Below are positions 24,565-49,136 of a stretch of DNA of 64,000 bases, in pieces. Under the pieces are notes generated by a model. It did no database searches. It was not told the DNA's origin and worked only from the letters and a program-made list of their open reading frames with translations. Origin of the DNA: a virus. The stretch's first letter is position 1. Every line of letters begins with the position of its first letter. The translations under genes and the position numbers were made by a program. The stretch is from positions 5,781 to 69,780 of the IMG/VR virus record IMGVR_UViG_3300035562_000069, one strand, 5' to 3'.

Positions 24565-24742
24565 GTCCCTACTCCTGCATGTCTATTTGTCGGATAGATC
24601 CGAAATGGAAAGGCGTATCGCTGCCCGTGCGAATAAGCACTCTGTTGCCAAAGTGCTTAGCGGCACAAACAAAAATGCCCGCACGAGGCGGGCAAATACT
24701 CAAAAGAAAATCACAACAGCACTGACCCTTGACCGGGGGAAA

Positions 24743-32543: not shown

Positions 32544-33356
32544 TCAATAATTGACTTCTTCAATTAATCGATTAGATAACAACGTAGTCGCCAAAGACTC
32601 TTCCACATACAGCCAATCCATGCACTGCTTAACCAGGTGTGAATACTGGCTTACCCAGTCACCCGGCTCAACCGCAGCCCCTATGATACGCATCGACTTA
32701 CGCAGATGCTCCATACTGGCTGGGATTTTTCCCTTACCGCCACACTCTTCACACTCCACCGGGTGCGGCCTAACAGTGCGGCCAGTGCCTGAGCAGCGTG
32801 GGCAAATATTGGTTGTGGCTGCGTGGCGTTCAGACCAGGCGCGCAGTGCTGCACGTTCCCGCTCAATCCGCGTATTCAAATCGGTAATTTCTAATCCAGC
32901 CTCAACGTAAACAGTATCGCTGATCTGCGCCTGACATCGGCGCTTGTCTAAACCCTTAATCTCAGACTGCAACGCCTCAATGTTTTTTCGGGCTTGGGCG
33001 GTACGTGGGCCATACCTGCGGAATAATGATGCGAGATGCGCCACTTGTGCCGGCAGGTTACGCTCAAGCACAATACTGAGGGCTAACTGGCATGCTGCTG
33101 CCGCACGATCAGGATGCGGGCGCTGATGTACCCATTCATTGATAGCTGCTCGTAGCCGCTGCTCTGCTTTGAAATCGTTACGGTACTTCGTCATCAGCAG
33201 ATCGAGGCCAACGGAATACTGCTGCTGCGCGGCTGCGAATGCTCCGAGAATTTGCTCCCTGGTCAGGGAAGAGCGGCCACGGCCTACATTCAATGATTCC
33301 GCGCTTACACAGCGCGGATCGTGCATTTTTATGAGTTGTTCTATTGCATTGGTCAT
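32544..33356 (-). CDS. Q-like late antiterminator with CxxC-x-CxxC zinc finger (TIGR02642-like)
   Basis: CPRCSGTG...CEECGGKG; located immediately upstream of late promoter and lysis genes. Confidence 0.75.
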   Translation of the reverse strand: MTNAIEQLIKMHDPRCVSAESLNVGRGRSSLTREQILGAFAAAQQQYSVGLDLLMTKYRNDFKAEQRLRAAINEWVHQRPHPDRAAAACQLALSIVLERNLPAQVAHLASLFRRYGPRTAQARKNIEALQSEIKGLDKRRCQAQISDTVYVEAGLEITDLNTRIERERAALRAWSERHAATTNICPRCSGTGRTVRPHPVECEECGGKGKIPASMEHLRKSMRIIGAAVEPGDWVSQYSHLVKQCMDWLYVEESLATTLLSNRLIEEVNY

Positions 33357-33367
33357 TGGTCAGTCCT
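33351..33367 (-). repeat. 17-nt start-site repeat AGGACTGACCAATGACC (Q-like gene)
   Basis: Exact copy. Confidence 0.9.
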
Positions 33368-33484
33368 GTAATTAATTGGCAGAACTGATTTTATAGCGTC
33401 TTTATTATAAAACAACCAAAATACAATATACTCCTAATAATCCCGTGTCATAGGCTTTATACTCCAATTTATTTACCTTTGATA

Positions 33485-35965
33485 TCACATTCCATACTTA
33501 AGAAAAACTCCATTTGTCCGGTTAGACTGATATCCTATCAAGTTCTCATAAGAGTCATAACCTTGACACTCATCCATAACAATAATCTCAACCAAAGGGC
33601 ATCCATGAAATTTGATATTTAGTTCTTTATGAAGAGCTTTCAACGCCTGGGAAAACTTTTCCTTTTGATTAGTATCCTTGCATATACTCTCAAAAATCAA
33701 GTATGCAACATCAGGTTCTATCCTCAAAACTTTTTCTTCAAACTTACTTCGATCGTTTTCGCTTTCTATAAATGCAGCGGCTGTCCCCTTAACTTCAGAA
33801 ATTATTAAATCGCCATCAATAATAGCTACAATGTCAATTTCTTGATAGTCATTCTTGTCAGATGACGAATGGAGATTAACTTCAGGAATGTAAACAGATT
33901 GCTTGCTTTTTGACTTCCTCAATAATAATGATACTGCGGCAATAACTGATAATCCATTATGCTCAGCCAAACATCTTAAAACAAATGGTGTAAATGCATA
34001 ACGCCATATCATATCTATTGGTGTGATATATTCCGCTGCACAAACATCACATTCATTCACTAATTTAAGACCATCTAAAACACGTCTATTTGAATTGCCA
34101 CAGTACTCACACCTTACAATATAAACCTGTTCAATAAAGCCAATTTTCACCATATACTCAATTACATCCAGCAAACTGGCACAGAGTAATTCTTTTGCTT
34201 TTCCAATATTTGTAATGTATTCGTCATCTATTACCCCATCAATATTTTTTCCTGGAATCTGCCTTATTTTTGTCTGAAGAGCTACTAACTCATAACCATT
34301 TACACTTTGTTCTCTTAATAAACCTCTAATGAAAACATTGTTAATGATAGATGATGCTTCATATATATTTGAAAACTTCGATACAACCCCTCTGTGCTGT
34401 TGGCCTTTATCCGAAATATTTATATATTCGTATTTATTTTTATCCTTACAAAATTTCCTATAATCATAATAACCTTTGTCATGACACATTAGTAATTTGA
34501 AAACATCCTCATCAGACGGGGACATCAATTGGAGATACTTGTCTTGTTTATTGTTATTACTTCTATACATACCAACAATATTTTCAGAACTTAGAATTGA
34601 GAGCGAGCGGTGTTTGTTTATTTTTGCCGGTTTTTTTGTAAATAACTCAGTGACAACATGCCTACGACATAGCTCCCAATAGTTATTCGTATTGACATAT
34701 AGACTATCATTTTGATAGCGCTCTATAAAAACATCAATAATCCACTCGCCACTCATTAAAAATTGGTGTTCATAATTTATATATGAGAAGTGCTCCGGCC
34801 CCTGCAGCTTAAATTTAGAATTTTTATTAATAGTATTTTCTTGTTGATCTGGCTTTCCTAAAAAACCGTATGGGTGTCGTCCGTCTAGATTAGGTAATGA
34901 TAGTTCATCAGTTTTTCTTGCTAGCTTTATTTCTACATTAGTAAATTGCTTTATTTTCAATATAAATTGCATGCAGTCATCATGCGTCAATGAAGATGTT
35001 CTTATTTCGACACACCCGCTTTGCGATCCATAGTTATATACATTTTTTTCTAAAAACCCACCAAGACTCTTACAAAAATCCTCATCACATGCAACCAATT
35101 TATCGATAATCATTTCAGATATACGCTCGGAACCCGAATAAAATGCCCCATCTTCAGAAATCATCCTTCTATTCCAGAAGTTTATTTTATCCAATGGAGA
35201 TGAACCAAGGTATAATTGGAATCTTACATTCCCAGCGGAACGTTTTTCTTTCGGATGTGAAATGTTTCCAGCATGGATTTTTGACAACAAAGAGAATGTT
35301 AATACTTCATCATTAGTTATAGCATCAACTATGCCCGCGATAGAATTTACTCTAAAATCACCTACATTCATATTTTCAGGAGTTTTTTCATCACAATAAC
35401 AAACCGTTTTAAACACACCATTTATCTTATATGTAAATGCTTCTACATCATGTCTAAACCCAAAGTTATCAGGTACAAAGTCTTTATGTTTTACATTGCC
35501 CTGTTGTGTGAGTAAAATTTTCTCCCCATCAGCATTTAATTTTCTTGCATATGGACTTTTAATTGTTGACAATGATTTAACTGGCTTATAGCGCACTAGC
35601 CTATTGGGGATGAAGCTACCATTTTCCCTCTCAAAACTATGATACCAAAACTCAATTGGCATTGTTATTTTATGCAGTTCCTCAATATCTTCCTGATTTA
35701 ATTTCACATATGAATAAATAAAATCAACTTCATAGTCATGTAACCAATCTAAGTATTTATCATTTAAAACCTTGCGCTTCTCATAGGGTATCAGTAATGT
35801 ATTTATACCTCCCCAACGGCTATAACACTCTTCAAATACTTTATTTATAATATTGCACGAAACCTCATCTTCATCAATAGGGATTAAATACGCAACTTTA
35901 ATAGGTCGGTTCCACAAGTCAACATCGATGCTCTTAGGAAGTTGCTCTAAATTATTTTCTTTCAT
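33485..35965 (-). CDS. 826-aa AT-rich protein with C-terminal Zn ribbon and PD-(D/E)xK nuclease-like motif
   Basis: CEYC...CDVC; QEIDIVAIIDGDLIISEVKG; N-terminal RPIKVAYLIP...WGG; ATGA-coupled to upstream gene. Confidence 0.7.
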   Translation of the reverse strand: MKENNLEQLPKSIDVDLWNRPIKVAYLIPIDEDEVSCNIINKVFEECYSRWGGINTLLIPYEKRKVLNDKYLDWLHDYEVDFIYSYVKLNQEDIEELHKITMPIEFWYHSFERENGSFIPNRLVRYKPVKSLSTIKSPYARKLNADGEKILLTQQGNVKHKDFVPDNFGFRHDVEAFTYKINGVFKTVCYCDEKTPENMNVGDFRVNSIAGIVDAITNDEVLTFSLLSKIHAGNISHPKEKRSAGNVRFQLYLGSSPLDKINFWNRRMISEDGAFYSGSERISEMIIDKLVACDEDFCKSLGGFLEKNVYNYGSQSGCVEIRTSSLTHDDCMQFILKIKQFTNVEIKLARKTDELSLPNLDGRHPYGFLGKPDQQENTINKNSKFKLQGPEHFSYINYEHQFLMSGEWIIDVFIERYQNDSLYVNTNNYWELCRRHVVTELFTKKPAKINKHRSLSILSSENIVGMYRSNNNKQDKYLQLMSPSDEDVFKLLMCHDKGYYDYRKFCKDKNKYEYINISDKGQQHRGVVSKFSNIYEASSIINNVFIRGLLREQSVNGYELVALQTKIRQIPGKNIDGVIDDEYITNIGKAKELLCASLLDVIEYMVKIGFIEQVYIVRCEYCGNSNRRVLDGLKLVNECDVCAAEYITPIDMIWRYAFTPFVLRCLAEHNGLSVIAAVSLLLRKSKSKQSVYIPEVNLHSSSDKNDYQEIDIVAIIDGDLIISEVKGTAAAFIESENDRSKFEEKVLRIEPDVAYLIFESICKDTNQKEKFSQALKALHKELNIKFHGCPLVEIIVMDECQGYDSYENLIGYQSNRTNGVFLKYGM

Positions 35966-37749
35966 TTCACTACCGCCCTATAGCTTATTGGTCTAAGGTC
36001 GAATAAACTTTCAGCCCCCCCCATTTTAATGTACATGCTGCAGCTATTTTCTATAAAATCAAGGTCATAGACACGATACAAAAAATATCTTGCTGCATTA
36101 TCAGCTGAAACGTTAACTTCATTTGATGATATATAAAACGGCGTGTATAAACTACCACGAGTTGTTTTCACTTCTATCAGTATAGAGTTCCCAGATTCAT
36201 CAAATGATTTAATATCATATCCTGCTGAACAATCCCTAAGAGATACTCTCTCTATTTTTGACGCAAGGTCAGGCCGACCTAAACTCAATAATCTCTCTCG
36301 TTCATAATTCATTACTAATTGCTCGCCTTGATCCCCAAGCGTACGGTTCCTTTCATCTGCAGCGGCCCAATCAGGTTGTTGTAAGATTTTAGTTGATTTA
36401 TTATTTTTTTTAACAACTTTAGATTTATTTTCTTCGTTAGGAAAATCAACCACTCTAATTTTAAATGCATCAACATCAAATTCATCAACAAATCCATCAT
36501 TTTTCAGAGCATTTAAAGCGGGAGCTATCTGTAATGAGTTTTTTAATTTAAAGGCTGATTGGCTACTCAGCAACCTCCACGTAAAACGAACTGGATTTGT
36601 TGAATTTTCAACAACCGAATCGTACGCCAACAACCCCAAATAACTATAATTTGATTTTTCTTCGCACCTTAAAAAAAGATGTATATTGCTTGTATTGTGA
36701 TCATGCGACTTTAACCTTTGAACAAAATCACTCTCCGCACTCATTTGTTTCTGTGTTTCCCAATGCAACTGACCTTCGTCGGTAAGTGCATCTTTATATG
36801 GATTGCCAGCATGCGGTTTTTCAATAGTAACAATGAATACTAGATCGTTCGTTTTATTTTTAAGTCTGATTATACCAGAGATACCCCAGCGCCCAGCCCC
36901 TACGGTAAATTTAGAACCAGGCTCAAATAACTGACAAATCCCCTCACGATCATATTTATTTAGTAAAATTGGCTTTAAGTTACCTTTCGACTTAGGTTCA
37001 ATATAAAATCCGTTTGACTTTAAAATTTCAAAACACTCACTATCTTCGCCGCCAGAAAACTCATCTGAAATTAGAAGTCTATTAATTATAGTTTTCGCAG
37101 CGATACCAAATATAAATTTTGGAGGGTAACGGTTTCCTTCATAAACTAAATCGTAAGTTGTCGAGTGCCGATAGCAGTAGCGCCATGGTTCGTATTGGCT
37201 ATAGTCCCTAATGGCTTCTCTAATATCCCTTGAGCTAAGCTCACGCATTAGTTCCTTTACATCATGGACCCTACCACTGGGGCCTTTATTAATGTCTACA
37301 AAACCATTACCGTCAAAGTATATACTAGCTTTTGACATTAAAAATGATGCCATATCAAAATCAATTTTCGATATGTATGCTCCTTGCTGAGGTACACCAT
37401 TTTTGTTTATAGGTGATAAATAATCACGTTTTATTGCAACCAGATGCTTTATATGTTCTTTAACATCAACCACTTTATTTAGCGGTTCAAACTTCACCTT
37501 TACTTCAAAATGTTCACTACCTTTCCAGTCAATAACTCTTGCTTCTTTTGACTTTACCACCCCAACGTTGGTTATTTTTTGGTCAAAGCATGCAAAAACT
37601 ATATCACCTTTTCTAGCTTGGCCTAGCATCTCGCGATAACCAAGCTTTGAATCACCGCCAATACCCGCAATAAGGATACCGTCACGAATTTCTATAACAT
37701 GACGTTCTTTATTATGATTAACCCAGAAAAACTGCTGTTCATTATCCAT
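35962..37749 (-). CDS. 595-aa multidomain nuclease: EVE/PUA-like, ScoMcrA-N-like, DUF3427-like and C-terminal DUF3883 (PD-(D/E)xK)
   Basis: FFWVNH...KGDIVF; STTYDLVYEGNRYPPK...FSGG; LHWETQ...IHLFLR...YSYLG; LGDQGEQLV...AGYDIKSF...IEVKTT...FYISSNE. Confidence 0.8.
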   Translation of the reverse strand: MDNEQQFFWVNHNKERHVIEIRDGILIAGIGGDSKLGYREMLGQARKGDIVFACFDQKITNVGVVKSKEARVIDWKGSEHFEVKVKFEPLNKVVDVKEHIKHLVAIKRDYLSPINKNGVPQQGAYISKIDFDMASFLMSKASIYFDGNGFVDINKGPSGRVHDVKELMRELSSRDIREAIRDYSQYEPWRYCYRHSTTYDLVYEGNRYPPKFIFGIAAKTIINRLLISDEFSGGEDSECFEILKSNGFYIEPKSKGNLKPILLNKYDREGICQLFEPGSKFTVGAGRWGISGIIRLKNKTNDLVFIVTIEKPHAGNPYKDALTDEGQLHWETQKQMSAESDFVQRLKSHDHNTSNIHLFLRCEEKSNYSYLGLLAYDSVVENSTNPVRFTWRLLSSQSAFKLKNSLQIAPALNALKNDGFVDEFDVDAFKIRVVDFPNEENKSKVVKKNNKSTKILQQPDWAAADERNRTLGDQGEQLVMNYERERLLSLGRPDLASKIERVSLRDCSAGYDIKSFDESGNSILIEVKTTRGSLYTPFYISSNEVNVSADNAARYFLYRVYDLDFIENSCSMYIKMGGAESLFDLRPISYRAVVK

Positions 37750-37782
37750 ACCAACACCCTATCCTTTGCGTGTTTTTAGGAT

Positions 37783-37811
37783 AAATTACCTTTTAGTTAC
37801 TGCAGTTTCAA
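37783..37811 (-). promoter_or_regulatory. Putative sigma70 promoter for the two-gene nuclease operon
   Basis: TTGAAA-17bp-TAATTT, 34 nt upstream of ATG 37749. Confidence 0.55.
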
Positions 37812-37890
37812 TTGAGAATCCAGGTGCTACTTATCATTCCACGTATAAACCGCCTCAGTTAATTTCATATACAATAATGAGCAACATCAA

Positions 37891-38208
37891 TTATTCCATT
37901 ATCAATAAATCATGTCCTATCCATATACCTATTGTCCTATGCAACGCATAGAATAAAACCTCATTAAGCTCACCTTGCCGCCAGTCGTATGGTATACGTC
38001 CATCGATTACATCGTGACAACTGGAGCATCCGAAAACAGCCCAGTAATCATCGCTTTTATACCCCATGCCATGGGTGCTACTGGGGAGATGACATAAAAC
38101 CGTTGTTTCCGGGTTCCCGTTGCAAATTCCAGGAATCTGCAGCGTACAGCACTGACCACGCGCCGAATCACGCAAGGCCTTACTCCTAAATGCTGGTGAC
38201 TTTCGCAC
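37891..38208 (-). CDS. DUF1364/YbcO-family nuclease-like nin protein
   Basis: SARGQCCTLQIPGICNGNPETTVLCHL...GCSSCHDVID. Confidence 0.85.
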   Translation of the reverse strand: MRKSPAFRSKALRDSARGQCCTLQIPGICNGNPETTVLCHLPSSTHGMGYKSDDYWAVFGCSSCHDVIDGRIPYDWRQGELNEVLFYALHRTIGIWIGHDLLIME

Positions 38209-38856
38209 TCAATACTCCAAGAGCCGATTAACGGCCTGTTCCATCTCATGCTCATCGGCGAAATGCTGTTGCAGCGTCTCGTTCCAGATGATGCCTGCGA
38301 CACCGCTATAAACCTTGTCGAACTTCTCCTGACTCATATTGACGAAAGCAATGCTCCAGCGCTGCTTCAGCGTTCCACCATCCGGGTTCGCGGCCAGGTC
38401 ATAGAAACCGGCCTTTACCATGACGTGATTGAGGTAAGCTTCCGTCGTTTTCACAGCTTCGGCGTCAAAACGCCGCTGACGTTGCGCAGCAACGCGCTGC
38501 AGCACACTGTCGGCGATCAGCTTTGTGATGTTGTCATACAGCAGCGGATCGCCAGCCTGCGCCGCCAGCGTCTTCGCTACCTCATGCGCAATCCACTTTT
38601 CTGGATCGCTAACGAACGTCCAATCTGGCTCCCAATACGAAAAGCCCAACTCCAGCAGCTTCCAGAATTTGCGGTGGTGCTTCAGGTTCCGGCGGTCGCC
38701 GATCGGTCGCATGGCGATAGGAGTGCCCGTAGGCACCCCTTTCATCGTGTCCCTGTCGTGGTCGGTCGCGTATTTGATACCGCCACCTGGTAGCAGCACC
38801 CCCAACGCTTCCGTCTTATGCTTTCTCGAGGACTTAGTTCGCGGCGCGGCTGTCAT
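38209..38856 (-). CDS. DUF1367-family (NinB-like) protein
   Basis: RNLKHHRKFWKLL...SIAFVNMSQEKFDKVY. Confidence 0.8.
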   Translation of the reverse strand: MTAAPRTKSSRKHKTEALGVLLPGGGIKYATDHDRDTMKGVPTGTPIAMRPIGDRRNLKHHRKFWKLLELGFSYWEPDWTFVSDPEKWIAHEVAKTLAAQAGDPLLYDNITKLIADSVLQRVAAQRQRRFDAEAVKTTEAYLNHVMVKAGFYDLAANPDGGTLKQRWSIAFVNMSQEKFDKVYSGVAGIIWNETLQQHFADEHEMEQAVNRLLEY

Positions 38857-39518
38857 GCGACACTCCTATCAGCCAGGCGCTCAGCTTCACTGCGGATCTG
38901 CGCCAAGAATGATTCGCCATGAGCCATCAACTGATCACGACTGACATAACTCTGAGCTGGACCGCGCCAAGTTTTATCAAACACCGCGATAGCTGCGCCA
39001 AAGCCGGCACTGCTGGCCTCTTGTTTTGCATCTGCCGGCCGATACCACAACGGCACATCAAAACCGATACGGCCACGAATGAACGCGACATGATCTGCAT
39101 CCTCTGGCCACCAGACTTCCGCTGTCGCTGATTTGATGAGAAACACATAACGCCCACCGAGATCCCGCATCGTCATGGTTTGGCGCATGATGTGCCGCAT
39201 GCCGGTGATATATTCACCTTCATACTGCTTCGCCGTGCTGTACGGCGGGTTACCAAAAGCCGCGCCATTCAGCTCTTTGACTCGGACAGACCAGTCCTGA
39301 ATCAGTGCATTATCTTCGGCTGTATAGAACGCCGCGCACTTGCTGTTTTCGCCGTCGCTGAACAGATCGAGAACAAAGGGACCAAACATCGCATTTATGC
39401 CCCAAAATAGCTTATCCGGCGTACGCCATTGGTCACCGATTTCTTTCAGCTCGTGAGCTGGAGCCTGTCTCAGCGCGGTTAGGGACCGAACGTAAGAGGA
39501 ATTTGAGAAGTCGATCAT
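38853..39518 (-). CDS. Phage N6-adenine DNA methyltransferase (phage Dam family)
   Basis: DQWRTP...FVLDLF...NPPYS catalytic motif. Confidence 0.9.
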   Translation of the reverse strand: MIDFSNSSYVRSLTALRQAPAHELKEIGDQWRTPDKLFWGINAMFGPFVLDLFSDGENSKCAAFYTAEDNALIQDWSVRVKELNGAAFGNPPYSTAKQYEGEYITGMRHIMRQTMTMRDLGGRYVFLIKSATAEVWWPEDADHVAFIRGRIGFDVPLWYRPADAKQEASSAGFGAAIAVFDKTWRGPAQSYVSRDQLMAHGESFLAQIRSEAERLADRSVA

Positions 39519-39862
39519 AGCTGGACCACCTTGTGCGAAGGTACCAGTCGATAGAACCAGGTAGTTTTTCCCGATTCGTCGTTGCGGACTTTGCTTACCT
39601 GCTTCACCAGGCCATGCAAGATCGGAGAGATTTCACGTAGACGCGCGCTAATCGCCGTCTGAGTATCCCCCTCATCGGGGAACATCTGCGCCAGCAGGTT
39701 TTCCAGATCGCGCAGTGAATGCCAATCAGCACCGCTGGCTGCCGTGATAACCCGGTTCATTTGAGTATTTGCTTCATCGAATCGGCCCGCCTTACGCAAC
39801 TTGCGGATCCCCTCGTTGATGCAGCTACGCTCTTTTTCGGAGGCTTGAGGTTTCTGCATCAT
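39515..39862 (-). CDS. Hypothetical winged-helix-like protein (115 aa)
   Basis: WHSLRDLE...TAISARLRE; ATGA-coupled. Confidence 0.6.
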
Positions 39863-41001
39863 TGCTCGGCCCCTGTACTCAGCACTGTCCGCGTGCCATC
39901 GACACCGGGCGCAGACAGCACACCACCGGCCTCCATCTGCTCTATCAGCCGCGCAGCGCGGTTATAGCCGATTCGGAATTGACGCTGCAGGCCTGAAATC
40001 GAAGCGTGGCCTTTAGCCTGCACAAACTGCACAGCTTCGGGATAACGCTCGTCATTCAGCGACTCATCATCCTCATCAGCCGTTGAGCCACTGCTATTGG
40101 CCGAATGGCTCGCTTCCCCGCCGAGAGCTGCAACCAGGTTGGCAATCAATGCCGACAGCTCGCCGGTCAGCAGAATAAAGTCCGCGTCAAAACGTTGGGC
40201 GTAATCTTCCCGATCGATATCGTCGTTCTGCTCCAGCAGCACATCGCTAAATTTCAGTTTCTTCAGCGTGCCGTCATCGCTCAAGACGAAATCGATCCGA
40301 TCCTGCCAGCTCAGCGCCAACTTAGTGACCAACTTACCCGCCTGCAGGTTTGACGCGATTTCATCTCCGACCAGATCCTGCTTCTTGCAACGGATAATCC
40401 CGCCCTCTTCCAGCACGGCTTTCAGCTCGGCCTCATCCTGCAGTGTGAAGCCCGCCGGCGGCTGGCCGGAGCGCACCCACTCGGTCACTGTTAGCTCGAT
40501 CGGGTTTGCCATGGTCAGCGGCACTACCGGCAAAGAACCCAGGCTCTTGCGCAACAGCGCCAGCGCATCTTCGGCCCGTTTAGCACTGGCAGCGTCAACG
40601 ACGATTAACCCAGCCCCTTCGTTAATCCAGATCTGTGTTTTATGGTGTTTGCTGAAAGCGCGCGGCAACAGGCTATGCAGCACTTCGTCTTTGAGCGCGT
40701 CATTCTCTGATTTCTTCAGTTTCCGATGCTGTTCGGCTTCAAGTTTGGCGACTTTCTCGTTCAGCTCGGTTTGTATAACTTCACGCGGGAGCAGTTTCTC
40801 TTCGCGCTGTACCACCAGCAGATGCTGGCCGTTGGCGGTGTGCACGAGTGCATCGCCAATCGGTGCCACCCATCCGGTTTTTGCCATGTCCTGGCTACCG
40901 CATGGCGTGAACGCAAATGCAGCCAGTTGCTCTTCCATCCCGCTCAGATCCACACCTCGGGACAAGCGGTAAATCATTGCGTTTTTGATGCTAATGGTCA
41001 T
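39859..41001 (-). CDS. rdgC: RdgC fused to a C-terminal FtsK gamma domain
   Basis: RdgC motifs [27 protein letters not shown]; C-terminal [25 protein letters not shown]. Confidence 0.9.
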
Positions 41002-41012
41002 TGGTCAGTCCT
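40996..41012 (-). repeat. 17-nt start-site repeat (rdgC)
   Basis: Exact copy. Confidence 0.9.
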
Positions 41013-41760
41013 TACTTGTTTTTGCTAGGGCCACCTTCAGCCGGATTGACTGAAGTAGTGCCGCGCCTTTTTTCTCTGTTTCGAGGGTGGTCAATCCCCG
41101 TTCTTTTCCAACACCTATCGGTATTTCGGTGTGCCCCAGCCTGATTACTGGCTCTGGTATTCGCTCCCCCTCCTGTAGTCTTTTTTCCCATTGCCTGAGC
41201 AGCTTCTCTGCCACCTTTCGCAGCTCTGCGACGCCGTGGTTGTACTGCAGCATGGCTTTGCGCATATCGGTGACAATCCAGTACAGGATCGGCGCTTTCC
41301 ATCGGAATTCTTCAGGGCTAGCGAATTCACTCCGCCTGGCGCTGTACCGGTCAAACTCCTCCATCACGATATCCACCGTCGGCAGCCTAGCGTCGATCAG
41401 CTCTTTTGCCATGGCCAGCCAGTCTGGTGGCGCAGGGAACGGATAAAACTTGCGTCCCGGCGCCGCCCTGATCGCATAGTTCAGTTGTTCCGGGTTAATT
41501 GCCTCCTGCAGAAGAACCCGCGTCAGCTCCGAACCAAACGCCTCCATGAGCCCCGTCGTGTTCATTCGGCTGACCCATGCTGGCCAGTGGATCGGATACA
41601 TGGGCAAAATCACCGTCAAGACAATCCCCTGTATCGCTTCCCGTTCCGCCGCCGTAGCCGTATTTTTCTTGTACGGTCTGCATTGCGGCAAGTCCCTGCT
41701 GGAAGCGATCCGTTGCATTGCCGCCGCTGTTACCCGCTTCGGCCCGTTGCGGTCGCTCAT
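41005..41760 (-). CDS. Replication protein P-like helicase loader
   Basis: FPAPPDWLAM, FRWKAPILYWIV, WEKRLQEGERIPEP motifs; follows O-like gene. Confidence 0.75.
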   Translation of the reverse strand: MSDRNGPKRVTAAAMQRIASSRDLPQCRPYKKNTATAAEREAIQGIVLTVILPMYPIHWPAWVSRMNTTGLMEAFGSELTRVLLQEAINPEQLNYAIRAAPGRKFYPFPAPPDWLAMAKELIDARLPTVDIVMEEFDRYSARRSEFASPEEFRWKAPILYWIVTDMRKAMLQYNHGVAELRKVAEKLLRQWEKRLQEGERIPEPVIRLGHTEIPIGVGKERGLTTLETEKKGAALLQSIRLKVALAKTSKD

Positions 41761-42547: not shown

Positions 42548-42729
42548 TACTCAGACCTCGAAGCAGAGGCCCCATGTTTGTCACTCTCCCGTGAGTAGTA
42601 CGCCTGCGTTACCCCTGACAGAGTCCCTGTGATAGCCAAACGCCGGGCTTCATGCCCAGCGATACCCAGCTTCTTACCAATGAGGCTGGATATCAGTTCT
42701 ACGGATTGGGTGGTCGATTGCTGGCTCAT
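42547..42729 (-). CDS. Hypothetical 60-aa protein
   Basis: ATGA overlap with upstream gene and TAATG overlap with O-like gene. Confidence 0.6.
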   Translation of the reverse strand: MSQQSTTQSVELISSLIGKKLGIAGHEARRLAITGTLSGVTQAYYSRESDKHGASASRSE

Positions 42730-43088
42730 AGTGGCAGCTCCTTTGTTGATGGAAGTGGCGGAAGCCATTCGGGAACCGGCAGGCCGGCGGCCTTCAGTTC
42801 GTTGTGGACGTGAACCAACATCTCGGGAGCTTCGGCGAACATAGCCAGGAAGCCCCGGATCGCGGCAACGTTGGTTTCAACTGCGGGGTTGGACGCCATA
42901 GCATCAGCGGCGCTTTTGATCGTCACTGCTTCACTCTCAGTCCACCGCGTTTTGATCTGGTCTTCTCGTACTGCAGCGAATGGCAGGCCGTTTTTGCCTA
43001 CCTTCTTGCGGGATAACAACTCCCGACGGACGCCAGAGGCTATCGCAGCCCCTGCCGTTCCGTCGCCTGGCCGGTAAATTGTGGTCAT
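42726..43088 (-). CDS. Hypothetical regulator at the cII position
   Basis: Directly after cro; starts within the 17-nt repeat. Confidence 0.55.
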   Translation of the reverse strand: MTTIYRPGDGTAGAAIASGVRRELLSRKKVGKNGLPFAAVREDQIKTRWTESEAVTIKSAADAMASNPAVETNVAAIRGFLAMFAEAPEMLVHVHNELKAAGLPVPEWLPPLPSTKELPL

Positions 43089-43099
43089 TGGTCAGTCCT
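43083..43099 (-). repeat. 17-nt start-site repeat (cII-position gene)
   Basis: Exact copy. Confidence 0.9.
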
Positions 43100-43108
43100 T
43101 ATGTGGTG

Positions 43109-43351
43109 CTAACAGGCTGGTTTGGTCAGAACCAGGCTTAAATTTTCAGGGTTGCGGCCATAATCCGCTGGGTTGTAGGTGTATGGGATTTTGGGTGATA
43201 AGTGGCAAAGCAAAGCGATGTCCTCGGGCACACCTTGAGCTCTCCATTTACCTACCGCTTGCCCAGTTCTTGCCTTGCCTTTTGATGGGAAAAGACGCCC
43301 AATTTCTGCGTTACTCCCAATTTGCTCTTTCAGGATTTCGTAAAGTCTCAT
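43109..43351 (-). CDS. cro: Cro-like repressor
   Basis: Divergent from cI; HTH SNAEIGRLF...TGQAVGKW; GGAGGT RBS before ATG 43351. Confidence 0.75.
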   Translation of the reverse strand: MRLYEILKEQIGSNAEIGRLFPSKGKARTGQAVGKWRAQGVPEDIALLCHLSPKIPYTYNPADYGRNPENLSLVLTKPAC

Positions 43352-43367
43352 TGTTACCTCCGATGTA

Positions 43368-43443
43368 AGCGTAACTAAAGTGTCGAAACCAATCAATAGC
43401 ACAACGAAAACAAAGTTTCCAAGCTTAGTGTTACTTTGGTGTC
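43368..43443. promoter_or_regulatory. pR promoter and three 14-bp operators (OR)
   Basis: pR (minus strand) TTGATT-17-TACGCT; operators at 43371-43384, 43406-43419 and 43430-43443, consensus GWMAC-YAAA-GTNWC. Confidence 0.75.
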
Positions 43444-43466
43444 CGATTTCAGGTTTGGAGTAAAAG

Positions 43467-44108
43467 ATGACCAGTAGCCTTGGTGAGCGAGTCAGTAAAC
43501 GGCGAGCTGATTTGGAAATGTCTCAAGAAGAATTAGCCAAGAAAGCTGGCGTATCACGCGTTGCGATAAGCAAGGCTGAACTCGGCCTAACCAAAAATTT
43601 CAATGGCGATACCCTTTTCAACGTTGCTCGGGCGTTGCGATGCGATCCGGAGTGGCTTCAAACTGGTAAGGGCAATATTGAGGGACGTACCTCTAATATT
43701 GACCCTGAACCTCAATACACGCCCTATAGTCTCCCAGTTTTAAATTGGCAGTCAGTATTGGAGCAGATTGAGGGGGGCAATAAAAAAGCCGAACAATGCC
43801 TGGAAACAACCTTGAACGTAGGTAAAGATGCATTTTGGCTGAAAGTAGAAACCGATGCCATGACATCCCCTATCGGACTAACAATTCCTGAAGGAATGAT
43901 GATACTCGTTAATCCTACTGACAATTTAACTTCTGGTAATTTAGTTATATTTAAGAAATCCGGGACTCGCGAAATATTTTTCAGGAAGTATGTTGAAGAG
44001 GCTGGCGATCGTTACCTCAGACCACTAAACCAAAACTACTCAATGATTAAAATAGATGGGCAGTACATGCCTGTTGGGGTGGTTGTTGATGCGAAATGGA
44101 TTCTGTGA
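43467..44108 (+). CDS. cI: CI-like repressor (HTH plus S24 fold) with inactivated autoprotease
   Basis: HTH MSQEELAKKAGVSRVAISKAE; AFWLKVETDAM (Ser to Ala), IFFRKY (Lys to Arg), no Ala-Gly site. Confidence 0.9.
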   Translation: MTSSLGERVSKRRADLEMSQEELAKKAGVSRVAISKAELGLTKNFNGDTLFNVARALRCDPEWLQTGKGNIEGRTSNIDPEPQYTPYSLPVLNWQSVLEQIEGGNKKAEQCLETTLNVGKDAFWLKVETDAMTSPIGLTIPEGMMILVNPTDNLTSGNLVIFKKSGTREIFFRKYVEEAGDRYLRPLNQNYSMIKIDGQYMPVGVVVDAKWIL

Positions 44109-44119
44109 GAGGGCAATAA

Positions 44120-44710
44120 ATGTATTGCATGAAGTGTAAAACGATTCTTAATGTTGATGATAACTTCTGCCGTTCTTGCGGGACGCCTGTCAGCAATTTA
44201 GCAAAGGACTCAACAGATGAACCTTGGCAGCAAGCTGCGTTGCCAAAAAACAACAACGGCAATCACAAGAAACCCACATTTTTAAAAAAATGGTGGTTTA
44301 TAGTTTTAGTTTGTTTCGCATTCTTTATTTTCTCTATGTTCAGAAAAGATTTGGTTAATATACAAATCAAAGAAAACCTACAATCAAATAGCGATCCTTG
44401 GGTAGCAGCAACAAAAGAATATGAATCGATAAAAAAGCAGCAAAAACTTCCATTGCAAACCGATAAATACACCATATTTAAAGATATGTTTATCAAAGGT
44501 CATGAAATTAACTATGTGTACTCTGTTAGTAACCTGGCTTTGAGTCATGAACTTAAAGATGCGTTTGCCAAAGATACACTAAGTGGGTTTAAGAAAGGCT
44601 CGTGCCAAGACCCCCTGATTGTTCAACATGGTGGGAAGATGGTTATTACATACCAATTCCTAACTGGCGACTTGGTTTACAGTTACGATAAAAGCAACTG
44701 CCTCAAATAG
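44120..44710 (+). CDS. Zn-ribbon, single-TM membrane protein co-transcribed with cI
   Basis: CMKC...CRSC, TM KWWFIVLVCFAFFIFSMF, soluble C-terminal domain; 11 nt after cI stop. Confidence 0.75.
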   Translation: MYCMKCKTILNVDDNFCRSCGTPVSNLAKDSTDEPWQQAALPKNNNGNHKKPTFLKKWWFIVLVCFAFFIFSMFRKDLVNIQIKENLQSNSDPWVAATKEYESIKKQQKLPLQTDKYTIFKDMFIKGHEINYVYSVSNLALSHELKDAFAKDTLSGFKKGSCQDPLIVQHGGKMVITYQFLTGDLVYSYDKSNCLK

Positions 44711-44731
44711 TTACCCTACCGTAAAGAACAG

Positions 44732-44753
44732 AAGCCGGTAAAGCCGGCTTTTT
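44732..44753 (+). terminator. Terminator of the cI operon
   Basis: AGCCGG/CCGGCT stem plus T-run. Confidence 0.65.
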
Positions 44754-44766
44754 CATGACCCATTCC

Positions 44767-44818
44767 GAAACTAAAGTATCAAAAATAACTTGACCGCACC
44801 CGAAACCAAAGTTACATT
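44767..44818 (+). promoter_or_regulatory. pL promoter with two 14-bp operators (OL)
   Basis: TTGACC-17-TACATT; GAAACTAAAGTATC (44767-44780) and GAAACCAAAGTTAC (44802-44815) match the OR consensus. Confidence 0.8.
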
Positions 44819-44839
44819 GAAGCCATCCCAACCGGGATT

Positions 44840-44851
44840 GCTCTTTAACAA
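44840..44851 (+). promoter_or_regulatory. boxA (nutL-like)
   Basis: GCTCTTTAACAA just downstream of pL. Confidence 0.75.
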
Positions 44852-45001
44852 ACAGGTAGCGACAGTAACACAGGGTATCCAGCACCCGTCGCGGCGCAAC
44901 TCAGTCGGATGAAACCCACTGATCGCTAAGCCTGTAGTGTTTTTACCCTGCCGCTGCCATTTCGGGGCGGCAGGACTAAGGCCACTGAATGAGAAAATCA
45001 A

Positions 45002-45193
45002 ATGAAAGATGAGCGACCAAAACCAACAGAAGACGAAGTGCAACAGTTGAAGACACTGCTGGAAAAGCATCCTACGTTTGTCTTCCAGCAGTTAAATAAG
45101 TGGATGAATCAAGATGGCTTGATGCTTCGCATAGTCGAACTGCCTAGCGAAAATGCGATCAGCGGAACTTCTGGTACATCACGCCTGATCTAA
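45002..45193 (+). CDS. Hypothetical 63-aa early protein
   Basis: First ORF after pL leader. Confidence 0.5.
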   Translation: MKDERPKPTEDEVQQLKTLLEKHPTFVFQQLNKWMNQDGLMLRIVELPSENAISGTSGTSRLI

Positions 45194-45266
45194 ATTCCAG
45201 TATCTACTAACGGCTTCCGCGCCGGTGGTCAGCACCGGCCTCCGCAGCAACAATTTGGAGAAAACT

Positions 45267-45452
45267 ATGGAATTACCTGAGTTACCTCTAGATGTACAAA
45301 TCATAGCTGCACAGGCGCTATGTCGTTATTTATGTGAGTCAGAAGAGCCAGCTGAAAGGCTGGCTCTAAGGGTTAAAACTGCGTTTATGACTCTTTATTG
45401 TCAGAATTCACACGAGTGTATTCCGCACGAAAATGATCAAGAAGCTGGGTGA
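45267..45452 (+). CDS. Hypothetical 61-aa early protein
   Basis: GGAG RBS before ATG 45267. Confidence 0.5.
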   Translation: MELPELPLDVQIIAAQALCRYLCESEEPAERLALRVKTAFMTLYCQNSHECIPHENDQEAG

Positions 45453-45564
45453 ACTCTAGATTAAACATTGTTGCGTTTGAAATCTTTCCGGCTTTGACTA
45501 ATTCCAGGGCTGCTTGATATGCAGCCGAGCTAGGTGCACGCAGGGGGTTGATAATATCAGACAT
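45385..45564 (-). CDS. Hypothetical 59-aa protein, antisense to the pL operon
   Basis: GAGG RBS before MSDIINPLRAPSSAAYQAALELVKAG. Confidence 0.55.
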   Translation of the reverse strand: MSDIINPLRAPSSAAYQAALELVKAGKISNATMFNLEFTQLLDHFRAEYTRVNSDNKES

Positions 45565-45690
45565 TTTTACCTCTTCTTGGTTGTGTGGAAACACCAAGAT
45601 ACCACCTCGCCTGATGTGGAAAAAAGCAGGTAACCTAATCATTCAAAAAGCATTAATCACCAAAATGTACATGCCCCAAAGTACTATCCG

Positions 45691-45707
45691 AGGACTGACC
45701 AATGACC
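45691..45707 (+). repeat. 17-nt start-site repeat (N-like gene)
   Basis: Exact copy. Confidence 0.9.
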
Positions 45708-45965
45708 ATGATTACAGCAAAAGCAAAATCAGCAAAAATCCGCCGCGCTCGTGAATTGCAAGAGCGGATTCAGCGCAGCAGTGACTGCATCGAAAAAACC
45801 ACGTTGGTGATCACTCGCTGTAAAACGATGCCGGATATGCCAGCGCCATCAAAGCCGCGCAAGCGCCGCACGGTTGAGAGCGAGCTTCTCGCACCGGGAC
45901 GAATCAGCGCTGCAGGCCGACAGAAAATGCGCGGTTGTAGCCGGATCCCCCGCGGCGTCATCTAA
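45702..45965 (+). CDS. N-like early antiterminator
   Basis: Arg-rich N-terminus AKSAKIRRARE, C-terminal AAGRQKMRG; boxA upstream; terminator at 45985-46014. Confidence 0.6.
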   Translation: MTMITAKAKSAKIRRARELQERIQRSSDCIEKTTLVITRCKTMPDMPAPSKPRKRRTVESELLAPGRISAAGRQKMRGCSRIPRGVI

Positions 45966-46036
45966 GCCCTTCCCTAACACAAAGAGCCGTAGCTAACGCT
46001 GCGGCTTTTTTTTTCGCCAAGATTCCGAACCTATGC

Positions 46037-46363
46037 CTATTTATTAGGCCCAGTAGGAGCAAGACTAAACTGCAAATGGTAAACGACGCCTTTGAAGTGA
46101 AACTCCACTTTAAATTGCGACGTAGGTTTGAATGGATCCGGAGAACCTTCGGCAACACAAGTTGAACGCCACTTGATATGCTCATTACCCTCACCCAGCC
46201 CTTTGGACTCCCACCACTCTCTCCAGCATTGATCAGCTGGTTGGTCTGTACCGATTTCCGTCACATACCAATGATTTTTTTTGGCTTGTTTGCCTTCTGC
46301 ATCAGACCCGTACATCCGGGAAGTCTTTCTTTTATTGACTAGAACAGTCATAGATTTTTCCAC
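46037..46363 (-). CDS. Hypothetical AT-rich antisense moron (Trp-rich)
   Basis: Opposite strand within pL operon. Confidence 0.55.
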   Translation of the reverse strand: MEKSMTVLVNKRKTSRMYGSDAEGKQAKKNHWYVTEIGTDQPADQCWREWWESKGLGEGNEHIKWRSTCVAEGSPDPFKPTSQFKVEFHFKGVVYHLQFSLAPTGPNK

Positions 46364-46601
46364 ACTATTTTTGATGACTTCTTATAGCACCGAGCTCCAA
46401 CAGCATCAATTCGATTTAAGTCATTAAACGAAGGCACATTCACTCGCATGTGGCTTGGCGTGCCTTCGGGGCGTCCACGCGACAACAGGCCACAGCCGAA
46501 TGAATGAATTGCTGTGTGTAGTCACCTTGCCCCGCTTGTCGGGGCTTTTTTTTGCCCCTACATCAGCCCACCAGCTTTTTCATCAACCAAAGGAAAACAT
46601 C

Positions 46602-46862
46602 ATGACCCCAATCAACATGACCCCCGTCGAATCCTCCCAGATTGACAGCATTGGCCACGACTCGGCCACCAACACGCTGGCCATCCGCTTCAAGTCAAAA
46701 GGCGCGCCATCGTCGCTGTATCATTACAGCAATGTGACACCGGAGGATTTTGCCGCGTTTAGCGGTGCCGAATCCGTCGGTTCCCACTTCTACAAGCACA
46801 TCAAAGCAGATACCGAGCGCTTCCCGTTCCAGCGAATCAATGAAAAGAAGGGTGACGAATAA
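46602..46862 (+). CDS. KTSC-domain protein
   Basis: PVESSQIDSIGHD...LAIRF...YHYSNV...SVGSHF. Confidence 0.85.
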   Translation: MTPINMTPVESSQIDSIGHDSATNTLAIRFKSKGAPSSLYHYSNVTPEDFAAFSGAESVGSHFYKHIKADTERFPFQRINEKKGDE

Positions 46863-46929
46863 CAGCGTGCTTTCACCATGCGCCAGGCTGCTGGCGCATG
46901 GGCAAGTTCACTGATACCGGAGGCAAGCA

Positions 46930-47283
46930 ATGCACGACTACAACTATCAGCGGATGGTTGAGGAGGCGCTGGAGCAGTACGACCGCAAGTTAGCGGCGGA
47001 TCCTGATGAAAAAGCGCTGCTCGATGAGCGCATTGAAGACATGCGTAAAAGTTTGCGGGTATCGGTGTTCCAAAAACTGATTGCGGATCGCTGCTACATC
47101 GCAGGGTTAGACAAGCGCCCTCTTGTCGCACTAACGGAGTCACCTGACATGGAGGAATACCTTTACTCGGTACAAACCGAAATCCTCACCCGGGTGGCAA
47201 AATCTGAGCGCGCGATGAAAATTAATTTAGTACGCGAACCAACACACTATAACTTTCCTGATGAAATAGAGTTCAGGTTTTAA
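46930..47283 (+). CDS. Hypothetical 117-aa early protein
   Basis: GGAGG RBS; helical acidic protein. Confidence 0.6.
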   Translation: MHDYNYQRMVEEALEQYDRKLAADPDEKALLDERIEDMRKSLRVSVFQKLIADRCYIAGLDKRPLVALTESPDMEEYLYSVQTEILTRVAKSERAMKINLVREPTHYNFPDEIEFRF

Positions 47284-48008
47284 TCTTCATCTTCATTGGT
47301 GATATAAAAAGCAGAAACCCTAGGGTATATATTATCCTCTGGGGAGCACTCCCCAATGGTTATAACAATAAGCCTATTTCTTTTCACATCACTAAAGCTA
47401 AACTTACAATATGCAAACCCTGTTGGACAGGCAACATCTATCTCCCAAAACCCTTGCCCCCAATAGTATTCCCCGTTACCACCTTGTAGTGTAAATTCTT
47501 CCGAGGGATATGACCATGAGTGCATTAGTGGGATCCACCCACTATCAATTAATTTCGCCCTTGCAATTTCATATCGCACGTCACGTATTTTAGGGATTGG
47601 CGTATAGTCTGCACCAGCTGGTTGAGGATAATACTCTTGCGACATTATTTTACCAATCCCAAGTCTGGTTTCACTTTCTCTTGTCTCCTTCCAGAATTTT
47701 AGTGTATCGAAATTATAGGAGAAAGTATCCACATCAATTAATTTTGAGCAATTCTGACATAGCCAAATTCCATTTTTTATATCTGACCGCTCTTCTCTTG
47801 TCATATTAACATCGAACCTAGGTCCTCCTGGGGAGGCAGCTAGTATATGACAAGCAACACCTATATTTATCGAATCTTTATCGTTGCCACTAGCACCTAT
47901 TGTGGTACTTCGACAGTCTGGGTTAGAGCAAATATATGCTGCTCTCTTCGCGAGCTCTTGTTTTACTCTGCTTTTAAAATCATCCCTTGCCACGTAATTA
48001 AACTCCAT
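47280..48008 (-). CDS. AT-rich antisense moron: N-terminal HNH nuclease plus unknown C-terminal domain (start may be GTG at 47993)
   Basis: CSNPDC...GVACHILAASPGGPRF...NGIWLCQNCSKLID. Confidence 0.8.
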   Translation of the reverse strand: MEFNYVARDDFKSRVKQELAKRAAYICSNPDCRSTTIGASGNDKDSINIGVACHILAASPGGPRFDVNMTREERSDIKNGIWLCQNCSKLIDVDTFSYNFDTLKFWKETRESETRLGIGKIMSQEYYPQPAGADYTPIPKIRDVRYEIARAKLIDSGWIPLMHSWSYPSEEFTLQGGNGEYYWGQGFWEIDVACPTGFAYCKFSFSDVKRNRLIVITIGECSPEDNIYPRVSAFYITNEDED

Positions 48009-48070
48009 TAAAGAGAAAAGCCCCGCAAGCGGGGCTATCCCGAGATGCGGCGACCAAACCGCAAATCATA

Positions 48071-48087
48071 AGGACTGGCCAATGACC
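48071..48087 (+). repeat. 17-nt start-site repeat, 1 mismatch (6-codon mini-ORF MTKATS, 48082-48102)
   Basis: AGGACTGGCCAATGACC. Confidence 0.75.
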
Positions 48088-48141
48088 AAGGCCACCAGCT
48101 AGCTGAGCGGGGAACCACCCCCGATCAACACGGAGAATACC

Positions 48142-48300
48142 ATGAGCCATAACCCTATCCAACAGATCCAGTACCAACACCGGATCGGCAGCCACAATAT
48201 TCACCAATTCAAACACCGCCGTCACCCGTTAAAAGCCTGCGCCGTCGTTCTCAGCGTTTTACGCTTATCTATCCGTAACTCCGTGAGGGCCGACCAATGA
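48142..48300 (+). CDS. Hypothetical 52-aa protein
   Basis: GGAG RBS; ATGA overlap with bet; translated by hand (below ORF-track cutoff). Confidence 0.5.
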   Translation: MSHNPIQQIQYQHRIGSHNIHQFKHRRHPLKACAVVLSVLRLSIRNSVRADQ

Positions 48301-49136
48301 GCAACATGGTAACAACGGGCAATTTACCGCAATCAGTCGCCGCCATGGGTATCGATGAACCCACCTGGAACGCGCTGAAAAACTCCATCTATCCCGGCGC
48401 GCGCGATGACTCTGTTGTCATGGCTGTCAGTTATTGCGTCGCCCGACAGTTAGATCCGCTGATGAAGCCGGTTCACTTAGTACCGATGAGCGTTAAAGAT
48501 GCCCAATCAGGCAAAAACGAATGGCGCGACGTAGTGATGCCCGGCATCGGCCTTTATCGCATTCAGGCCGATCGCTCAGGGAGCTATGCAGGCGCATATG
48601 AGCCTGAATTTGGCGACGACATCACAAAGACGCTGAACGGCGTTGAAATCACCTTCCCCGCCTGGTGCAAGTACACTGTCTGCAAGAGCATGCCCGACGG
48701 CAAGATCGTCGAATTCAGCGCCAAAGAATACTGGATGGAGAATTACGCGACTGCTGGCCGTGATAGCTCCGCGCCGAACGCTATGTGGAAGAAACGCCCT
48801 TATGGCCAGCTCGCGAAATGCGCCGAAGCACAGGCACTACGCAAAGCATGGCCCGAAATCGGCCAGCAGCCTACGGCGGAAGAAATGGAAGGTAAATCCT
48901 TGGATATCAGCGACGCCAAGGATGTGACGCCCCACAAAGAAACCCAAACGCCGCTGACGTTGCCACATTACCCGGCTGAAAAATTCAATCAAAACCTCCC
49001 TGGTTGGCAAAAGATGATCGAATCCGGCAGTAAAAAAGCCGATGCCGTGATCGCGACCGTCAGCACCAAGTTCACCCTTTCAGAAGCTCAAACCGAAGCT
49101 ATCCGTAAATTGGAGCCTATCGATGCAAATCATTAA
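48297..49136 (+). CDS. bet: Single-strand annealing recombinase Bet
   Basis: YCVARQLDPLMKPVHLVP...GIGLYRIQADRSG...MWKKRPYGQLAKCAEAQALRKAWP. Confidence 0.9.
   Translation: MSNMVTTGNLPQSVAAMGIDEPTWNALKNSIYPGARDDSVVMAVSYCVARQLDPLMKPVHLVPMSVKDAQSGKNEWRDVVMPGIGLYRIQADRSGSYAGAYEPEFGDDITKTLNGVEITFPAWCKYTVCKSMPDGKIVEFSAKEYWMENYATAGRDSSAPNAMWKKRPYGQLAKCAEAQALRKAWPEIGQQPTAEEMEGKSLDISDAKDVTPHKETQTPLTLPHYPAEKFNQNLPGWQKMIESGSKKADAVIATVSTKFTLSEAQTEAIRKLEPIDANH

Follow-up and report, generated by a model that had tools for sequence, protein, structure and literature searches.

The DNA analysed here is a window of 64,000 nucleotides (nt), most of the 72.8-kb IMG/VR virus record IMGVR_UViG_3300035562_000069, and it holds a lambdoid prophage with S24 repressor, cro-like, DnaT-domain, P-like, Dam and DUF1367 genes. 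Our subject is a 17-nt repeat, AGGACTGACCAATGACC (the motif), which lies on the starts of several early genes of this prophage. A search of the window with up to three mismatches allowed, and with shuffled sequences as control, returned seven matches to the 17-mer where 0.10 are expected, and none of 100 shuffles got to seven. Four of these matches are exact, one has a single mismatch and two have three mismatches, with one of the latter lying away from gene starts.

On the minus strand, exact copies are found at 33351-33367, 40996-41012 and 43083-43099. The first opens the gene of a Q-like protein (32544-33356, minus strand; 270 amino acids (aa), phrog_127, zinc-finger C-terminus) and consists of the Shine-Dalgarno (SD) sequence AGGA, the spacer CUGACCA, the AUG at 33356-33354 and then ACC. 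The second opens a gene for an RdgC protein with an FtsK-gamma domain (39859-41001), and its internal TGA (41007-41005) is at the same time the stop codon of the lambda-P-like gene at 41005-41760. The third belongs to a gene for a 120-aa protein (42726-43088), which occupies the cII position directly after the cro-like gene. The remaining exact copy, on the plus strand (45691-45707), opens the N-like gene at 45702-45965, whose product of 87 aa has an Arg-rich N-terminus. The ATG of every exact copy starts the open reading frame (ORF) concerned, and all four proteins begin with Met-Thr. The copy with one mismatch (48071-48087, plus strand) heads an ORF of six codons (48082-48102), and a degenerate copy that agrees at 14 of 17 positions (48286-48302, plus strand) lies at the start of a RecT-family gene (48297-49136); unlike this copy, the recT genes of relatives carry the motif exactly or with one mismatch. 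The second match with three mismatches, at 24718 on the plus strand, does not fall on a gene start and is probably a chance occurrence. The remaining gene starts of the window match the motif at 12 of 17 positions at most, and the other prophage genes use ordinary GGAG-type sites. Within the window, the copies are thus confined to 33.3-48.3 kb, the early region.

A first-pass annotation, made from the letters of this DNA, had listed four exact copies at the Q-like, rdgC, cII-position and N-like starts, a copy with one mismatch at the six-codon ORF and one with three mismatches at 48286, and the mismatch search recovers all of them. The Met-Thr start that the exact copies were said to force is present in all four ORFs, and the judgement that chance is a very unlikely source agrees with the shuffled control. 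The name "bet" given to the gene at 48297 has to be replaced, as this is a RecT-family gene and not Red-beta. Furthermore, the description of the headed genes as key regulatory genes is too narrow, since the motif of relatives is also found at the starts of RecT, P-like, excisionase and Arc-like genes and of genes of unknown function.

Distribution and conservation of the motif

Viral contigs contain the exact 17-mer in more than 119 stretches, and one contig often has several of them. For a defined sample we collected 39 related proviruses via the Q-like gene and counted copies with up to three mismatches, using the reversed motif as control. All 39 proviruses carry the motif in 2-10 copies each, adding up to 289 copies in comparison to three matches of the reversed control. 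Among 185,579 species genomes, multi-copy matches are restricted to Pectobacterium, Brenneria, Serratia, Yersinia, Symbiopectobacterium and one metagenome-assembled genome labelled Aeromonadaceae, and the scattered single matches in other phyla agree with chance, which predicts about 70 in 596 Gb. In two complete host genomes the copies cluster in one prophage stretch of 11-22 kb, with one further copy on a second contig. As these clusters coincide with the early stretch of a prophage, host genes do not use the motif. Among the cultured phages of INPHARED, a megablast search with 16 kb and a tblastn search with the 120-aa protein gave no match, the Q-like protein matched one distant Pasteurella phage, and the RdgC matches lack the FtsK-gamma tail; no cultured phage of this collection has the marker genes of the lineage (120-aa, Q-like). 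The motif string itself was not found in the searchable literature. Among sequencing runs, one soil-metagenome run contains the whole window and may be its origin, and the single RNA run contains 5% of its sequence words.

The ORFs behind exact copies cluster into at least eight multi-member families and several singletons. Overall, the motif heads at least ten unrelated families, namely N-like, 120-aa, Q-like, RdgC, RecT, lambda-P-like, excisionase, Arc-like, phrog_2600 and phrog_1621, of which the last two (270-280 aa and 155 aa, respectively) are proteins of unknown function. All of these are early genes, and the motif always has the same orientation as its gene. Only a few copies in the relatives lack the ATG, either with ATA at the site of the six-codon ORF or, in one case, behind a hairpin of the opposite strand. 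The latter is seen in loci L286-L289, where the 12-base core AGGACTGACCAA is followed by TAAAA and no ATG, about 370-800 nt upstream of the Q-like gene, on the opposite strand and directly after the hairpin; this core is among the few copies away from a gene start. The most degenerate copies occur in G029 and G030 (loci L318 and L319), which are among four records in which no N-like gene was found, and as these two records are 54% and 74% complete, the joint occurrence of motif degeneration and N-like loss is only a hint.

The consensus AGG-A-CU-GACCAA-UG-ACC combines the SD sequence AGGA, a fixed 7-nt spacer CUGACCA, the start codon and a Thr codon. So that the motif itself did not bias the choice, we collected homologues of RdgC and of the Q-like protein on the basis of their proteins. 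AGGACTGACCAATGA(C/G)C is present in each of the 32 RdgC-gamma homologues (63-97% aa identity), whose upstream contexts fall into at least five unrelated types. Distant RdgC genes of 300 aa, from other phages, lack the motif and use ordinary sites. In the Q-like homologues (53-97% identity) the core AGGACTGACCA is kept in 45 of 46 cases, and its spacing to the ATG varies from -1 to +2. These shifts stay within the tolerance of the SD-to-AUG distance, which indicates an element linked to the SD sequence and not a rigid block.

A column-by-column profile makes the constancy of the motif most evident: positions 1-15 are about 100% identical, even among homologues that share only 55-65% identity. 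Upstream, pairwise identity is 25-60% and the DNA is unrelated, and downstream the profile follows a codon pattern with third positions that are about 45-50% identical, which means saturated. Constant positions between unrelated upstream DNA and saturated third positions show that the spacer is under selection beyond the needs of SD and AUG. The rare changes within the motif preserve its function (ATG to GTG, TGA to TAA), and variants are specific for a site and travel with the gene, such as AGGAAAGACCAATGACC, which belongs to excisionase-like genes, and ATGGCC, which is found with a third N-like type. Therefore, the copies are not homogenised within genomes, and each of them is held by selection.

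The motif could simply be a good ribosome binding site, copied or convergent, with optimal or extended pairing to the 16S rRNA of these hosts. The AGGA has the right distance from the AUG for this, and UAAGGA, UGA and CC can be drawn in a bipartite pairing with the 3' tail of the 16S rRNA. However, 21.5% of all 16,384 possible spacers pair with this tail as well or better, and across the whole 16S rRNA the motif pairs no better than shuffled motifs but even more weakly. Since neither the tail nor the whole molecule favours it, we rejected 16S pairing as the reason for the spacer. Moreover, the host genomes do not have the motif outside prophages and the other genes of the same prophage rely on GGAG sites, so that we disfavour this explanation and consider it extremely unlikely.

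Mosaic junctions and a cassette indel

The motif also marks the borders between genes. It includes stop codons, with TGA at positions 6-8 (frame of the ATG) and at positions 13-15 (+1 frame), and a third-frame stop arises when TA or TG precedes. In about 27% of 298 distinct contexts the upstream ORF ends on one of these stops, with all three frames being used. We compared 116 pairs of loci with a common downstream gene (at least 85% identity) and unshared upstream DNA, and 114 of them lose identity within 6 nt of the 5' edge of the motif. In the 13 reverse cases, all breaks lie within 4 nt of its 3' edge. A comparable pattern emerges from the alignment of the window with its relatives: at RdgC, 15 of 20 ends of high-scoring segment pairs fall exactly on the motif edge, the site of the 120-aa gene shows breaks on both sides, and recT and the N-like gene behave alike.

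A 455-bp unit lies between two motif copies, in the interval from the cro-like to the 120-aa gene. It is made up of a motif copy, an ORF for a basic protein of 83 aa and about 190 nt, and it is present in nine loci and absent in ten, with flanks that are 92-96% identical. In locus L099 the cassette spans 3062-3533 on the plus strand and the basic protein begins with MTISPKRWLTNWRAKRK; locus L107 lacks it at 8983-8999. This pattern of presence and absence fits the footprint expected of a recombination between motif copies, from which we infer one event.

For lambdoid phages, short conserved boundary (linker) sequences have been proposed to mediate module exchange (Susskind and Botstein, 1978; Clark et al., 2001, on HK620; both cited in PMC3029335). 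These sequences are, like our motif, short, conserved and located at gene or module borders where the homology between relatives starts or stops (PMC3029335). In contrast, what we see here is one identical sequence at many junctions of one genome, which holds a whole translation initiation region and is conserved more than neutral linkers should be; this comparison refers to the published descriptions and not to the boundary sequences themselves. Another repeated element at gene borders is the PeSL of T4-type phages, a "mobile regulatory cassette" of about 50-70 bp with a promoter and a terminator stem-loop (Arbiol et al., 2010; PMC2839356). It is likewise a shuffling site, with single genes gained or lost between copies (PMC2839356), but the motif is only 17 nt long and has no promoter or terminator consensus at its copies, which sets it apart from the PeSL class. 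A promoter in or beside the motif was rejected as well, as no copy has a consensus promoter and the AGGA has to serve as the sole SD sequence.

In its pure form, the linker explanation would mean that the motif is kept only by module exchange, with SD and AUG being incidental and the spacer not read by anything. The breakpoints on the motif edges and the cassette indel between two copies agree well with this, and so does the position of the motif at the classical lambdoid borders (N/immunity/cII-position, replication/nin, nin/Q and the start of the recombination module) in a phage that encodes a RecT-family annealing protein. However, second-order selection for exchangeability is unlikely to fix 15 positions at about 100% next to saturated synonymous sites. 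Different junctions do not need identical linkers, and identity within one genome invites deletions. Besides, the variants are inherited with their gene and without intragenomic homogenisation, the indels between core and ATG in the Q-like genes leave the core at SD distance, and the occurrence of the CUGACCA word in hairpin loops, described below, would have no explanation. Finally, the minimal efficient pairing length is 31-34 bp for RecA and 23-27 bp for Red-beta, and 17 nt stays below both (PMC3945230). Taken together, we regard a motif that is nothing but a linker as unlikely.

The spacer word in RNA hairpins and a possible DNA operator

Outside motif copies, CTGACCAA occurs in the window only as the loop of a hairpin, CUGGUU-CUGACCA-AACCAG, at 43117-43135 on the minus strand. 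This hairpin, at the cro-like gene's end, precedes the motif by 17 nt, and its 7-nt loop is identical to the motif spacer CUGACCA. In the relatives the CUGACCA loop is invariant, and the stem appears as CUGGUU/AACCAG, CUGGCU/AGCCAG, GCACC/GGUGC or UCACC/GGUGA. Five of six base pairs change on both sides, and 94% of the cells are paired in comparison to 14-44% if the partner is slid. Two hairpins with CTGACCA in coding regions (40507-40523 and 33255-33270) were discarded, as they disappear in more distant relatives or result from Leu-Thr codons.

The leftward early operon contains a conserved element of three hairpins (48040-48126, plus strand; z -2.9), which includes the six-codon ORF at 48082-48102. 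The first hairpin (48046-48063) has the loop CGACCAAA, and according to a comparison of the stems by eye, its GACCAA loop is invariant in the relatives over at least four different stems. The middle hairpin (48076-48094, loop AAUGACCAA) is built by the motif copy with one mismatch, and it is the A-to-G mismatch that makes the stem. The third hairpin (48105-48126) has the loop AACCAC. Since the start of the six-codon ORF can be lost, as shown by the ATA in relatives, it is the RNA and not the peptide that is conserved here. A hairpin of a different kind is found at the Q-like gene (33360-33388, minus strand), where UCAGUUCUG (33380-33388) pairs with CAGGACUGA of the motif (33360-33368) in a 9-bp stem that hides the SD sequence (z -1.8). 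Complementary arms like UCAGUUCUG are present upstream of most Q-like homologues and pair with the 5' half of the motif.

In nut sites, boxB hairpins are bound by Arg-rich N proteins, and their loops are GAAAA in lambda and GACAA in P22. The hairpins at 43117-43135 and 48046-48063 resemble them, with a covarying stem, an invariant purine-rich loop and one hairpin per early operon, in a phage whose N position is occupied by the gene of a small protein with an Arg-rich N-terminus. Because stems covary around an invariant loop and an N-like family with such an N-terminus is present in 35 of the 39 relatives, these hairpins are plausible analogues of boxB. In contrast to boxB, the loops comprise 6-8 nt (CUGACCA, GACCAA), the leftward hairpin and the N-like gene upstream of it are 2.3 kb apart, and the motif copies are not part of hairpins except for that at 48071. 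No boxA was recognised either, as reading the sequence near both hairpins revealed no boxA-like CGCTCTTA.

A further candidate binder of the motif is the 120-aa protein (42726-43088, minus strand), which surpasses all other early proteins of the lineage in conservation by a wide margin and is called hypothetical in every annotation. It was found in 37 of the 39 proviruses, with 81-99% identity in 34 of them, and its own start always carries the motif. The family occurs only in Serratia, Yersinia, Dickeya, Pectobacterium, Brenneria, Edwardsiella and kin. An AlphaFold model of low confidence (pLDDT 65) has a beta-alpha-alpha core and the Atlas feature matches point to ribbon-helix-helix (RHH) families (scores 0.89-0.90), whereas no match was obtained in Pfam (RHH), in PHROG or, by Foldseek, in the PDB. 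Residues 45-86 may form an RHH core.

With such a protein in mind, the motif could also be read as a DNA operator. It contains a 7-bp direct repeat, and these tandem heptads (TGACCAA-TGACCAn) would be bound by a phage protein, for example the 120-aa protein, to act as a roadblock in the manner of a stoperator or as an activator site. In lambda, CII sites overlap the starts of cII and xis and are also found inside Q; heptad repeats are the target of the RHH repressor omega. The conservation, the strict link of the 120-aa gene to the motif and the RHH-like features of its product would fit this idea. Nevertheless, the second heptad is the least conserved part of the motif (positions 15-17 vary), and the indels of -1 to +2 in the Q-like genes break the 7-bp phase. 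A DNA operator would not require the constant SD distance of the core or its co-orientation with the gene. There are also no promoter-like hexamers at the motif, the upstream DNA where the -10 element of an antisense promoter would lie is not conserved, and the RHH assignment is only a lead in view of the missing Pfam and fold matches. Stoperators of cluster A mycobacteriophages, 13-bp asymmetric repressor sites (PMC3203893), share with the motif the many asymmetric copies in early regions oriented with transcription, but these DNA sites are not fixed to start codons, whereas the motif always sits on SD and AUG. We therefore judge a DNA operator to be very unlikely.

A start-associated sequence and its possible reader

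Start-associated sequences (SAS, 5'-GGGATAGGAGCCC) have been described for cluster K mycobacteriophages (Pope et al., 2011; PMC3203893), and their function was still untested in 2025 (PMC12699233). Like the motif, SAS are short asymmetric repeats with an SD core that lie on the start codon or a few bases from it, they occur in about 7-19 copies per genome with one orientation relative to the gene, and they belong only to non-structural early genes of many unrelated families. In both systems positions that are unable to pair with 16S rRNA are conserved, the repeat is absent from the host genome, and upstream stop codons sometimes lie inside the repeat. The sequences are unrelated, and the motif resides in lambdoid prophages of Gram-negative Enterobacterales, a host phylum other than that of cluster K. 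Here, the start codon and the second codon belong to the repeat and the spacer word appears again in hairpin loops. Breakpoints and a cassette indel fall on the motif edges, and the accessible part of Pope et al. (2011; PMC3203893) makes no mention of such a pattern for SAS. We also saw no ESAS-like inverted repeats of 17 bp, unlike in the cluster K system. Altogether, the motif shows the functional hallmarks of SAS (multiple copies, start-codon position, one orientation, non-structural genes, conservation apart from 16S pairing and absence from host genes), but AGGACTGACCAATGACC is unrelated to the consensus GGGATAGGAGCCC, from which it departs by more than two deviations. It is therefore an analogue of SAS and not a member of this group.

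Based on our data, the motif is a real, strongly selected and lineage-wide start-associated sequence in Gram-negative lambdoid prophages, located exactly on mosaic junctions, and it is part of its mechanism that we infer. We think it probable that this sequence works as a portable gene-junction cassette, whose spacer is read by a factor and which doubles as a recombination junction. The motif would be the translation initiation region of the genes it heads, and the spacer would be held constant because a sequence-specific factor, a protein or an RNA of the phage or of the host, reads it in the mRNA. Such reading would bring about a co-regulation of the early genes. Covarying hairpins of both early operons display the same word, CUGACCA or GACCAA, single-stranded in their loops. 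At the same time, the presence of one sequence at many junctions in many phages would offer a crossover point for modules and cassettes, via RecT-type or host recombination.

The first-pass annotation had proposed either a translational operator, targeted by an RNA-binding protein or a small RNA (sRNA), or a linker for Bet-mediated module exchange. As the motif is conserved far beyond its flanks and homology breaks on its edges, the reverse of the outcome in relatives that was named there as a refutation, both alternatives survive, and they are not mutually exclusive. For the operator, the conserved spacer bears out the claim that the repeat exceeds what an SD sequence requires (positions 1-15 kept at about 100%, a spacer not singled out by 16S pairing), even though neither a complementary sRNA in the window nor a binder came to light. 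For the linker, the suggested mapping of mosaic boundaries in relatives did place the breakpoints on the motif edges; an involvement of Bet is not supported, since the gene is of the RecT family and not Red-beta, and 17 bases are fewer than the 23-27 bp given above (PMC3945230).

Several points weigh against this combination of a read spacer and a recombination junction. On the side of recombination, breakpoints also pile up at gene borders that have no motif, for example near 38850, 42600 and 46600, the 116 breakpoint pairs are not phylogenetically independent, with loci that were partly gathered by the motif itself, and the 455-bp indel may be a single historical event. Identical repeats in one genome should come at the cost of deletions, and the length of 17 nt, short of the pairing minima of RecA and Red-beta (PMC3945230), is an objection here as well. 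On the side of translation, three of the four initiation-region contexts have no special structure, and our search yielded no trans-acting factor, neither a binding protein nor an RNA. There is no antisense partner in the window, where strong complementarity to the motif is limited to the opposite strands of its own copies, and no Rfam family reaches the gathering score over the whole window, with only sub-threshold matches in 42.9-48.4 kb.

With regard to the identity of the reader, GACCAA/CUGACCA might be the RNA word of one phage factor, with the Arg-rich N-like protein as the best candidate, which would recognise it both in the boxB-like loops and between SD and AUG. The N-like protein would then bind the word at its own gene as well as at those for the 120-aa, Q-like, RdgC, RecT and other early proteins. 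We consider this variant distinctly unlikely. If true, a single RNA-binding protein would run antitermination and translation of the whole early programme, and the site shared in this way would also be the cassette-exchange point of the lineage.

SAS have been known for 15 years from one mycobacteriophage cluster only, and the motif adds an independent and unrelated one, whose hosts are genetically tractable Enterobacterales. This makes it testable whether phages run their early programme by sequence-specific translation initiation signals, and also whether the linkers postulated by the modular theory of phage evolution are real and functional. For recombination assays, the nucleotide-precise loss of homology at the edges of the 17-mer and the clean cassette indel provide a concrete substrate.

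Some further observations concern the surroundings of the N-like gene. A gene for a 59-aa protein of unknown function (phrog_17494; 45385-45564, minus strand) is divergent from it, and the gap of 137 bp between these two genes (45565-45701) must hold the leftward early promoter. A TACTAT hexamer sits 5 nt upstream of the N-like motif copy, so that the N-like mRNA may start almost at the motif. Directly 3' of the gene follows a terminator-like intrinsic hairpin with a T-run (about 45987-46016 within the region 45975-46015, plus strand), which is where an N-dependent terminator would be expected. Between this terminator and a KTSC-domain gene, positions 46418-46555 (plus strand) contain a candidate RprA-like sRNA (Rfam RF00034, 36 bits at a gathering score of 70, E 0.1) with the RprA core GAAUUGCUGUGUGUAGUC and a strong terminator at 46529-46553. 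As an antisense partner of the motif this candidate was rejected, because it pairs with it no better than with shuffled motifs. The true start of the KTSC-domain gene is probably the ATG at 46603.

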